Source: Escherichia coli
Lineage (GTDB): Bacteria > Pseudomonadota > Gammaproteobacteria > Enterobacterales > Enterobacteriaceae
Reading direction: 5' to 3' (one strand)
Assembly (NCBI RefSeq): GCF_003334315.1
Contig: NZ_QOWR01000080.1
Length of the DNA: 13,636 nt
In this document: positions 3,526-4,077 of the stretch, piece by piece
Numbering within the stretch: position 1 is the stretch's first letter
How the letters are laid out: each line of letters opens with the position of its first letter
Notes under the pieces: generated by a model
The model's input: the letters and a program-made list of their open reading frames with translations, nothing else
The model's database searches: none
Told to the model about the DNA's origin: nothing
Translations under genes and position numbers: made by a program

Positions 3526-3798
3526 ATGTTATTAAACGAGGTAATCCCTATGGGTTCGCTTACTAAACAAACCATCAGCGCGCAGATACCTATTGAATTG
3601 GCCGCTGCTGTTGAGAATCTGGCAATTGAGTTAGATCGTTCTAAAAGCTGGATTATTAAGGAAGCGTTGACCAGTATGCTGGCCGAAAGAGAACGGCGTC
3701 ACCAGAGCATCCAGGCCGGTCTTGCTGATGTGGATGCCGGTCGTGTGATGAGCCACTCGGACATGGTGGATTTTGCTAATCGCTTAAAGAAATCCTGA
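3526..3798 (+). CDS. Ribbon-helix-helix (CopG/ParD-like) antitoxin
   Basis: Small ORF with AGGAG 8 nt upstream of ATG 3526; alternative ATG at 3550 has a GAGG site. N-terminal beta-strand-like segment (ISAQIPIELAAAVENLAIELDRSKSWIIKEAL) is typical of RHH DNA-binding antitoxins. Its stop lies 3 nt before the next ORF. Confidence 0.65.
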   Translation: MLLNEVIPMGSLTKQTISAQIPIELAAAVENLAIELDRSKSWIIKEALTSMLAERERRHQSIQAGLADVDAGRVMSHSDMVDFANRLKKS

Positions 3799-3801
3799 TA
3801 A

Positions 3802-4077
3802 ATGGAAATTTACTGGACGCTTAAAGCTCAGGATGACCTTGAGCGTATCTATCGTTTCGCCCTTCAGTATAGCCGCCAGCACGCCGATGACGTTTTGGAT
3901 CGCCTGATTACTGGTTGTGCTGGTCTTACAGCACATCCGGCAATTGGTGTACAGCAGACTCGGTATGAACCTCGGGAAGTCCGAAAAGTGTTATTTGATG
4001 ATTATGAGGTCCACTACGAACTTCGTGACAATGACATTTATATCGTGGATCTCTGGCATACCAGAGAAGAACGATGA
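3802..4077 (+). CDS. ParE/RelE-superfamily toxin
   Basis: 91-aa ORF translationally coupled to the upstream RHH gene. Size and sequence character (MEIYWTLKAQDDLERIYRF...YIVDLWHTRE) fit ParE-like toxins. Confidence 0.65.
   Translation: MEIYWTLKAQDDLERIYRFALQYSRQHADDVLDRLITGCAGLTAHPAIGVQQTRYEPREVRKVLFDDYEVHYELRDNDIYIVDLWHTREER

Follow-up and report, generated by a model that had tools for sequence, protein, structure and literature searches.

Do two small adjacent genes on the Escherichia coli chromosome make up a working toxin–antitoxin (TA) module of type II, and to which subtype does the toxin belong? The question is raised by a gene pair in a stretch of 13,636 nucleotides (nt) of contig NZ_QOWR01000080.1 (assembly GCF_003334315.1), referred to here in its entirety as the window, for which an initial annotation had proposed a ribbon-helix-helix (RHH) antitoxin and a ParE-like toxin forming a ParD/ParE-like addiction module. 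We found that this proposal is borne out by the families of the two proteins, the ParE fold predicted for the toxin and the conservation of the genes as a pair. Our results suggest that positions 3501–4077 of the window quite probably constitute a self-contained type II TA cassette of the ParD/ParE kind, together with the whole mechanism proposed below. Taken by itself, the TA architecture of the locus is highly probable, and poisoning of DNA gyrase by the toxin, a step argued by analogy, is slightly favoured. The genes and signals of the pair are as follows.

3550–3798, + strand: antitoxin gene, encoding an 82-amino-acid (aa) ribbon-helix-helix (CopG/ParD-like) protein, WP_024187601.1.
3802–4077, + strand: toxin gene, encoding a 91-aa predicted ParE-type member of the RelE/ParE superfamily, WP_001683517.1.
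3526–3798, + strand: 90-aa open reading frame (ORF) version of the antitoxin gene, in which an internal in-frame ATG at 3550 gives the 82-aa protein.
3526–3549, + strand: the 8 extra codons of the 90-aa ORF, probably non-coding and made up of untranslated leader and operator.
3538–3541, + strand: Shine-Dalgarno (SD) sequence GAGG, read from the sequence, 8 nt before the ATG at 3550.
3796–3801, + strand: tandem stop codons TGA TAA, the TAA being the entire 3-nt gap ahead of the toxin ATG.

The two co-directional ORFs lie 3 nt apart, exactly as described at the outset. The junction reads TCC TGA TAA ATG, with TGA at 3796–3798, TAA at 3799–3801 and the toxin ATG at 3802, and the antitoxin thus ends with two consecutive in-frame stops, the second of which is the intergenic gap. 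RefSeq annotates both ORFs as coding sequences (CDS) in all listed genomes, under the names "CopG family ribbon-helix-helix protein" (82 aa) and "type II toxin-antitoxin system RelE/ParE family toxin" (91 aa). Homologues at 65–99% identity were found across Enterobacterales, in Salmonella, Citrobacter, Klebsiella, Yersinia, Serratia, Pectobacterium, Dickeya, Erwinia, Photorhabdus and Limnobaculum. Ratios of non-synonymous to synonymous substitution rates (dN/dS) determined against orthologues were 0.07–0.09 for the antitoxin and 0.04–0.10 for the toxin (0.09–0.10 vs. an 88%-identical E. coli allele and 0.04–0.07 vs. Limnobaculum), and synonymous sites were saturated in the comparisons with Serratia, Pectobacterium and Photorhabdus. 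Both genes are under strong purifying selection. Given the low dN/dS, the Pfam matches reported below and the RefSeq CDS annotation, we conclude that both ORFs are real genes and not chance reading frames. In the toxin, 16 positions are invariant among 22 homologues with identities down to 38%, including the C-terminal W85, T87 and E89, with H86 near-invariant; Tyr17, Phe19 and Tyr23, located in helix alpha1 and the loop to alpha2, are near-invariant as well. The locus therefore shows the adjacency characteristic of type II TA systems, i.e., small co-directional genes, antitoxin first, tightly spaced and conserved as a pair.

The antitoxin matches Pfam RHH_1 (7e-7, residues 17–50 of the 90-aa ORF), and its relatives in the Protein Data Bank (PDB) are P. 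aeruginosa ParD1 (6xrw_B, 7.6e-5, the best match), CopA_SO (6iya_A, 2.4e-3; 7etr_A, 7.2e-3) and M. opportunistum ParD3 (5ceg_A, 0.017). These Pfam and PDB matches place an RHH DNA-binding domain at the N-terminus of the protein and uphold the view of the upstream gene as an RHH antitoxin. The sole NCBIfam match, NF048017 (antitoxin_RelB_like, 24.2 bits, E 2.9e-5), falls below the curated cut-off of 50 bits, and the protein is not a member of that RelB family by this measure. We also modeled antitoxin and toxin as one chain joined by a Gly-Ser linker with AlphaFold2 (AF2), using ten paired sequences. In this fused-chain model antitoxin residues 41–80 had a predicted local distance difference test (pLDDT) value of 86–97, compared with 45–72 for the monomeric RHH part, and the antitoxin formed a helix (33–63), a strand (66–68) and a second helix (69–82). 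Such ordering is consistent with, though not proof of, the ParD-type mode in which the C-terminal region of the antitoxin would wrap the toxin. Naming of the antitoxin lineage as ParD, RelB or CopG is inconsistent across databases. Two metagenome pairs (L008 1184–1731 and L010 3715–4276), distant relatives with toxins 38–43% identical, have antitoxins of 90 aa that carry Pfam RelB3_C besides RHH_1.

The toxin matches PF05016 (1.4e-15, 88 of 89 model positions). As this family mixes RelE and ParE proteins and does not discriminate between the subtypes, we examined the subtype in three ways: by family profile, by structure model and by Foldseek. A single-sequence search of the PDB was barely informative (best E-value 0.37, for O157 ParE2, 5CW7), and a search of NCBIfam assigned the toxin to no family. 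The family profile, built from 22 homologues, matched ParE toxins only, namely ParE3 (5ceg_B, 6e-4), ParE_SO (7etr_C), O157 ParE2 (5cw7), PaParE1 (6xrw_A) and MtParE1 (8c24); none of the PDB entries for RelE, YoeB or HigB were matched by it. The AF2 model of the toxin (pLDDT 93.8) consists of strand beta1, a long alpha1–alpha2 hairpin (helices 7–20 and 25–43), a short strand (50–52) and three main strands (60–65, 68–75, 78–86), with just 5 residues past the last of them. This is the ParE-type arrangement of a hairpin on a three-stranded antiparallel sheet. When the model was compared with the PDB, Foldseek ranks 1–21 were all ParE or close ParE-like proteins (ParE3, ParE2, PfiT, PrpT, VcParE2, MtParE1, PaParE1 and CcParE1 among them) with template modelling (TM) scores, TMq, of 0.79–0.89, whereas RelE, HigB, YoeB and YafQ reached TM values of 0.46–0.72. 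In a weak profile alignment with E. coli RelE (hhalign probability 3.6%), the invariant Glu69 and Glu89 are aligned with the catalytic residues Arg61 and Arg81 of RelE, whose Tyr87 lies beyond the toxin C-terminus, so that, as far as such an alignment can be read, the toxin is without the three RelE catalytic residues. Since profile, predicted fold and residue alignment agree, the toxin is, on these models, ParE-like within the RelE/ParE superfamily, and its designation as ParE-like stood up in the searches against ParE and RelE families.

The same evidence bears on the alternative in which the toxin would cleave mRNA on the ribosome, as RelE-type endonucleases do, and the module would be a RelBE rather than a ParDE system. 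Such an assignment could draw on the breadth of PF05016, on the RelB-like name of the only NCBIfam match of the antitoxin, on the RelB3_C domain in antitoxins of distant relatives and on the undifferentiated RefSeq name of the toxin. Yet the NF048017 score is far under its cut-off, no RelE, YoeB or HigB appears among the profile matches, the fold is closer to ParE than to any RelE-type toxin, the protein ends before the C-terminal segment that bears RelE Tyr87, and invariant glutamates occupy the Arg61 and Arg81 positions of the weak alignment. We consider a RelBE module extremely unlikely. E. coli RelBE shares the gene order, the gene sizes, the RHH antitoxin and the Pfam superfamily of the toxin with our pair, and differs from it in the subtype of the toxin fold and in the catalytic residues that have no counterpart in this alignment.

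For the antitoxin a size of 82–90 aa had been given; of the two starts implied, that of the 82-aa protein is supported and that of the 90-aa version is not. The 82-aa start is the one chosen by RefSeq and most gene callers. The ATG at 3526 is at the same time the 3-nt spacer separating two TTATTAA heptads of the predicted operator described below. At other loci, including that of Erwinia amylovora, this spacer reads CTTC, CTG, CAT or CTT, and no ATG equivalent to 3526 was seen in the aligned loci of Serratia, Pectobacterium, E. amylovora and the metagenome (L015), the Serratia locus lacking a start codon of any kind at this place. The SD of 3550 is strengthened to GGAGG in E. coli allele L003 (88% identical), where the AGGAG preceding ATG 3526 has decayed to AAGAG. 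This AGGAG (3514–3518), the candidate SD for ATG 3526, would lie at the mRNA 5′ end or ahead of it if transcription begins a few bases past the -10 element. The start at 3526 was rejected in favor of 3550, as it is not conserved and its ATG is the operator spacer; the antitoxin thus probably begins at ATG 3550, and the 90-aa version is probably unused. Salmonella enterica is very rich in members of this antitoxin family (clusters seen on 1000 or more contigs), and the annotated start of the family varies among records between 74, 82 and 90 aa, which suggests that start-codon annotation of the family is systematically inconsistent in public records.

The gap between antitoxin and toxin genes ranges from -1 to +13 nt over 12 loci from different genera and contexts; it is 0–6 nt in the close subfamily, the values of -1 and +13 nt belonging to two distant pairs. 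No GGAG-type SD precedes the toxin ATG in any locus compared, that of E. amylovora included. The short gap and the lack of a recognizable toxin SD are consistent with translational coupling by termination and reinitiation. An mRNA hairpin with arms at 3781–3798 and 3828–3845 that would hide the toxin start was also considered and rejected: its folding energy was unexceptional (z = -0.9, 37 of 200 shuffles as good), and it was not recovered in a consensus fold of 9 orthologous junctions.

Upstream of the pair, the following control elements were recognized.

3501–3509, + strand: extended -10-like element TGcTAATAT (TGnTAnnnT), a putative promoter element.
3509–3535, + strand: predicted antitoxin operator with three half-sites 10 bp apart, in a conserved block.
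3509–3514: inverted half-site TTAATA of this operator.
3519–3525: half-site TTATTAA.
3529–3535: half-site TTATTAA.

The distance between the TG.TA...T motif and the heptads is constant across all nine aligned loci, which come from various genera and contexts, and the motif is found in E. amylovora as well. An ungapped alignment of 8 loci (7 distinct sequences) gave the consensus TGcTA...TtAA.A..agTTATtAA.t.tTATTAa, to which E. amylovora also conforms, and this block is conserved despite the saturation of synonymous sites between genera. TTATTAA-N3-TTATTAA occurs once in the window vs. 0.01 occurrences expected. In Photorhabdus all three sites are changed together (TCAATAA / TTATTGG / TTATTGG) and the antitoxin ribbon reads KQTITAQ vs. 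KQTISAQ in the others, a single correlated case. The heptad-N3-heptad layout matches that of the experimentally defined CopA_SO operator, GTANTAC-N3-GTANTAC (PMC8706911), in which two 7-mers are likewise 3 nt apart; the heptad sequences differ (GTANTAC vs. TTATTAA), and the third, inverted half-site sets our cassette apart. On this basis the three heptads are predicted to be the antitoxin operator. With TGcTAATAT as the -10, transcription would start at ~3516 ± 3. The promoter and operator had been expected at 3480–3525, which is about right in position, the conserved block actually extending from 3501 to 3535.

Results of the comparison between genera indicate how much DNA belongs to the cassette. 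The 82-aa RHH and 91-aa ParE genes stand together among unrelated genes in Photorhabdus, Serratia, Pectobacterium, Limnobaculum and several metagenomic contigs, next to lptFG, secG/argG or a LacI regulator, or beside an integrase, with none of the E. coli neighbors. Similarity across these loci starts ~50–70 bp upstream of the antitoxin ATG and stops at the toxin stop. Within E. coli, homology to most other carriers stops at ~4081, a few bases from the toxin stop, and beyond this point most of them (L002 and L004, ~6608) have a divergent allele of the regulator region; from sequence comparison the right edge of the cassette has the appearance of a recombination junction. From the upstream start of similarity and the homology end near 4081 we delimit the cassette to ~3480–4081. 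The pair with ~50 bp of upstream DNA travels as a self-contained unit across Enterobacterales.

The point at which homology ends falls inside a palindrome to which attention had been drawn:

4075–4091, + strand: perfect 8+8 palindrome TGAAGAGC-A-GCTCTTCA, overlapping the TGA stop of the toxin gene, allele-specific.

The palindrome is present as noted, yet it does not qualify as a special feature. By our estimate, the 761 nt scanned should contain ~0.7 perfect inverted repeats of 8 nt (within 60 nt) by chance; its RNA fold has a z of -1.5 (14 of 200 shuffles fold as well), no T-run follows it on the + strand, and it is missing from every other allele and genus examined. We thus rejected the roles of terminator, att site and conserved element for it and regard it as a chance or allele-specific occurrence.

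The region belongs to the E. coli chromosome: 1 kb of it is 100% identical to at least 12 complete genomes, and over its full length the window shares 99.9% identity with strain RCAD0514, among others. Of 5426 complete E. coli genomes, 92 have the pair, in every case as a single chromosomal copy, and 388 have the flanking DUF4942 and regulator sequences. The nearest neighbors of the pair are listed below.

1818–2153, + strand: YeeU/CbeA type IV antitoxin, of a second TA module just upstream.
2184–2525, + strand: CbtA toxin of the same second module.
2616–3473 (also given as ~2640–3473), + strand: DUF4942 gene, between the CbtA module and the RHH–ParE pair.
4194–4982, + strand: 262-aa XRE-type helix-turn-helix (HTH) regulator (N-terminal Pfam HTH_3, 4.8e-13).

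The complete gene order is DUF932, radC, yeeU (cbeA), cbtA, DUF4942, RHH, ParE and the XRE-type regulator, then restriction and HNH endonuclease remnants, nanS/nanM/nanC and fimB/fimE/fimA; the restriction-type genes of the island are those of a phosphorothioated-DNA restriction endonuclease and an HNH endonuclease. In a 100%-identical genome, a tyrosine integrase and a tRNA-Leu adjoining ahr and yjgR lie ~12 kb upstream, which points to an integrative island at leuX and agrees with the chromosomal island setting first suggested for the pair. The same integrase-bearing island type was seen in the four records examined, the tRNA-Leu location being shown in one. In K-12 this locus is occupied by KpLE2.

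In all E. coli loci inspected an XRE gene comes directly after the pair, and it is not beside it in Photorhabdus, Serratia, Pectobacterium, Limnobaculum, E. amylovora or the metagenomic loci. Being linked to the pair in E. coli only, the regulator was rejected as a third component of the PaaR-PaaA-ParE type. Its acidic C-terminal region has no family match, and weak PADLOC matches (HTH_VI, CapH, RmrA) arise through the HTH. Upstream of its gene (4116–4193) lies a 17-nt direct repeat (4120–4136 and 4139–4155), replaced in the alternative allele of most other carriers (L002, downstream of 6604) by the perfect inverted repeat GAGTATAAACAC...GTGTTTATACTC; the repeat is probably the regulator's own operator. 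The DUF4942 protein matches phrog_6263, annotated as a DNA methyltransferase (2.9e-13), and two PHROG families of unknown function. A 326-aa ORF at 6562–7542 on the - strand overlaps a truncated sialate O-acetylesterase (nanS) pseudogene, so annotated by RefSeq in near-identical genomes, at the right end of the island. An Rfam search of 3300–4400 returned no match.

Among known systems, the closest relative with a probable experimental record is that of E. amylovora. Its pair (EAMY_0402/EAMY_0403) has the same sizes (82 and 91 aa), with 82% identity in the antitoxin and 76% in the toxin, and shares both the promoter block and the order radC-cbeA(107)-cbtA(106)-DUF4942-RHH(82)-ParE(91) (L021 7543–10276), in a different host and without the XRE regulator found after the pair in the E. 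coli island. The counterparts of these genes in Table 1 of the study by Shidore et al. (2019, Toxins 11:206; PMC6521040) are EAMY_0399, 0400, 0402 and 0403; the authors report that a ParE/RHH pair, the system predicted by both of their tools, strongly inhibited growth of E. coli BL21 and was rescued by RHH. The orthologue is probably the pair tested there, judging from the selection logic of the paper, the gene sizes and the rhh forward primer, whose first 16 nt match the orthologue exactly before a 1-nt indel.

The best mechanistic precedent is offered by ParE_SO/CopA_SO from the Shewanella oneidensis CP4So prophage (PDB 7ETR, 6IYA), which likewise combines a CopG-type RHH protein with a ParE fold on a CP4-like element. 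It is remote in sequence (antitoxin E 2.4e-3 to 6iya and 7.2e-3 to 7etr; toxin profile 3.8e-3, over the N-terminal half). In that system the disordered CopA_SO C-terminus becomes folded upon contact with the toxin, and ParE_SO cannot do without a His close to its own C-terminus if it is to be toxic; free CopA_SO has a ~40-fold tighter hold on the operator than the 1:1 complex, and the module stabilizes the excised CP4So element (PMC8706911). The solved ParDE systems of P. aeruginosa (ParDE1, 6XRW), M. opportunistum (ParDE3, 5CEG and 6X0A), C. crescentus (ParDE1, 3KXE), V. cholerae (ParDE2, 7R5A) and M. tuberculosis (ParDE1, 8C24) share the toxin fold (TMq 0.79–0.89) and, as here, an RHH antitoxin with a C-terminal tail, at toxin identities of 18–26%. 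Gyrase inhibition was shown for several of them and would extend to our toxin by analogy. PaaR2-PaaA2-ParE2 of E. coli O157:H7 (5CW7), likewise located on a mobile element of that species, provided the best single-sequence PDB match with its ParE-fold toxin (TMq 0.82–0.85); it differs in being a three-component system whose regulator is a separate protein and whose antitoxin is not of the RHH type, whereas our antitoxin carries its own RHH.

The nearest abundant E. coli paralogue is found on IncF plasmids of the pO157 type beside repA (WP_001178089.1 / WP_000421248.1):

1150–1776 of locus L019 (NZ_CP062730.1; also in L018): IncF paralogue pair, directly downstream of IncFII repA.

Its toxin, of 91 aa too, is 42% and its antitoxin, of 94 aa, 36% identical to ours; the genes overlap by 1 nt, and the upstream repeats are analogous (TAATCA..ATGATTAA-N2-ATGATTAA). 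Homologues (at most 64% toxin identity) are carried by 1712 PLSDB plasmids, 1237 of them from Escherichia and 130 from Shigella. Identification of this paralogue with ParDE-I (Kamruzzaman and Iredell 2019) was rejected, since the ParE-F primer is absent from both loci and ParE-R from L019; pJIE512b was not in the plasmid collection searched. Plasmid copy number control of the PrpT/PrpA kind (PMC7848731) might be relevant to the IncF paralogue.

We propose the following mechanism, the steps of which are inferred from the characterized ParDE and CopA_SO/ParE_SO systems and from type II TA biology. Antitoxin dimers would bind the heptads at 3509–3535 through their N-terminal beta-ribbons and, because these overlap the extended -10 element and the predicted transcription start, such binding would repress the operon. 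The C-terminal ~40 residues of the antitoxin would fold onto the toxin and neutralize it. Given the 3-nt gap and the missing SD, the toxin would be translated mostly by ribosomes terminating at the antitoxin stop, and this coupling would keep toxin below antitoxin. Upon loss of the island or a halt in antitoxin synthesis, the labile antitoxin would be degraded and the free toxin would arrest growth. The likeliest activity of the toxin would be poisoning of DNA gyrase by the alpha-hairpin, by which retention of the island would be favored. The gyrase target, argued by analogy, and the biological role are the least secure of these steps.

Several observations weigh against the proposed mechanism and have to be set beside the evidence for it. 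Identity of the toxin to any solved ParE is 18–26% only, and what the fused-chain model yields is confidence values. The consensus scan found no good -35 and no consensus sigma-70 site upstream of the pair, so that read-through from the DUF4942 gene is possible. A literature search by the RefSeq protein accessions returned no experiment on the E. coli pair itself. As to the E. amylovora precedent, no match to the parE primers printed in PMC6521040 was obtained in the orthologue or in a set of 100,044 representative genomes; the primer table of that paper has at least one duplicated entry, docR being the GNAT reverse primer. Finally, gyrase inhibition is not common to all toxins with a ParE fold: E. 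coli O157 ParE2 gave no gyrase inhibition and M. tuberculosis ParE2 bound GyrB weakly (PMC8706911), and PrpT/PrpA controls plasmid copy number (PMC7848731). A functional ParE-fold TA pair with a toxin target other than DNA gyrase would accommodate these last cases, as it would the presence of the functionally different ParE-like PrpT and PfiT among the top fold matches (PMC7848731, PMC13048266) and the poor conservation within the family of Trp25, the gyrase-contacting residue of VcParE2 (bioRxiv 2025.07.24.666505). Nevertheless, most characterized ParE toxins poison gyrase (PMC8706911), and the hairpin is the gyrase-contacting element in VcParE2, where only Tyr can replace Trp25 (bioRxiv 2025.07.24.666505); Tyr17, Phe19 and Tyr23 are near-invariant in our family, and their positions may be equivalent to that of Trp25. 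A non-gyrase target is therefore rated as rather unlikely, and gyrase poisoning keeps its slight preference.

With regard to the role of the module, abortive infection as a phage defense in place of island stabilization draws some plausibility from the restriction-type genes and the second TA module on the island and from the wide discussion, in reviews, of a phage defense function for type II TA systems. Against it, neither protein had a match in PADLOC 2.0 at E ≤ 0.01, no toxin homologue was found in a collection of 50,697 phage records, the nearest precedent (ParE_SO/CopA_SO) acts in element maintenance, and in other genera the cassette sits amid housekeeping genes. We regard defense as the main role as unlikely, to a greater degree than a non-gyrase target. 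Very unlikely is a further possibility, that the island antitoxin partly neutralizes or cross-represses the IncF module, or that the toxin has a non-gyrase target specific to the Enterobacterales subfamily; if cross-neutralization were true, the cassette would be an anti-addiction element and cells would survive loss of the IncF plasmid. Least probable of all is that the pair is an inactive remnant, or that the RHH protein is a transcription factor only and the downstream protein harmless. Chromosomal TA loci do often decay, but every listed carrier has both genes in intact form, purifying selection on them is strong, the invariant toxin positions include a W85-(H86)-T87-x-E89 motif located, like the essential His of ParE_SO, near the C-terminus, and the probable orthologue is reported to be toxic.

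The module is ordinary, an uncharacterized E. coli member of a well-known family that RefSeq already names correctly. Our analysis adds the ParE subtype, the 82-aa start, the boundaries at ~3480–4081, the operator and promoter prediction, and the mobility of the cassette across Enterobacterales; it also shows that the cassette accompanies CbtA/CbeA and DUF4942 in CP4-like islands of E. coli and E. amylovora and occurs alone in other genera. The importance of this is slight, as it describes one further ParDE-type module and goes little beyond bookkeeping. If gyrase poisoning is true, the module could aid retention of the leuX island, and SOS- or quinolone-related phenotypes are possible in the ~2% of E. 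coli that carry the cassette.

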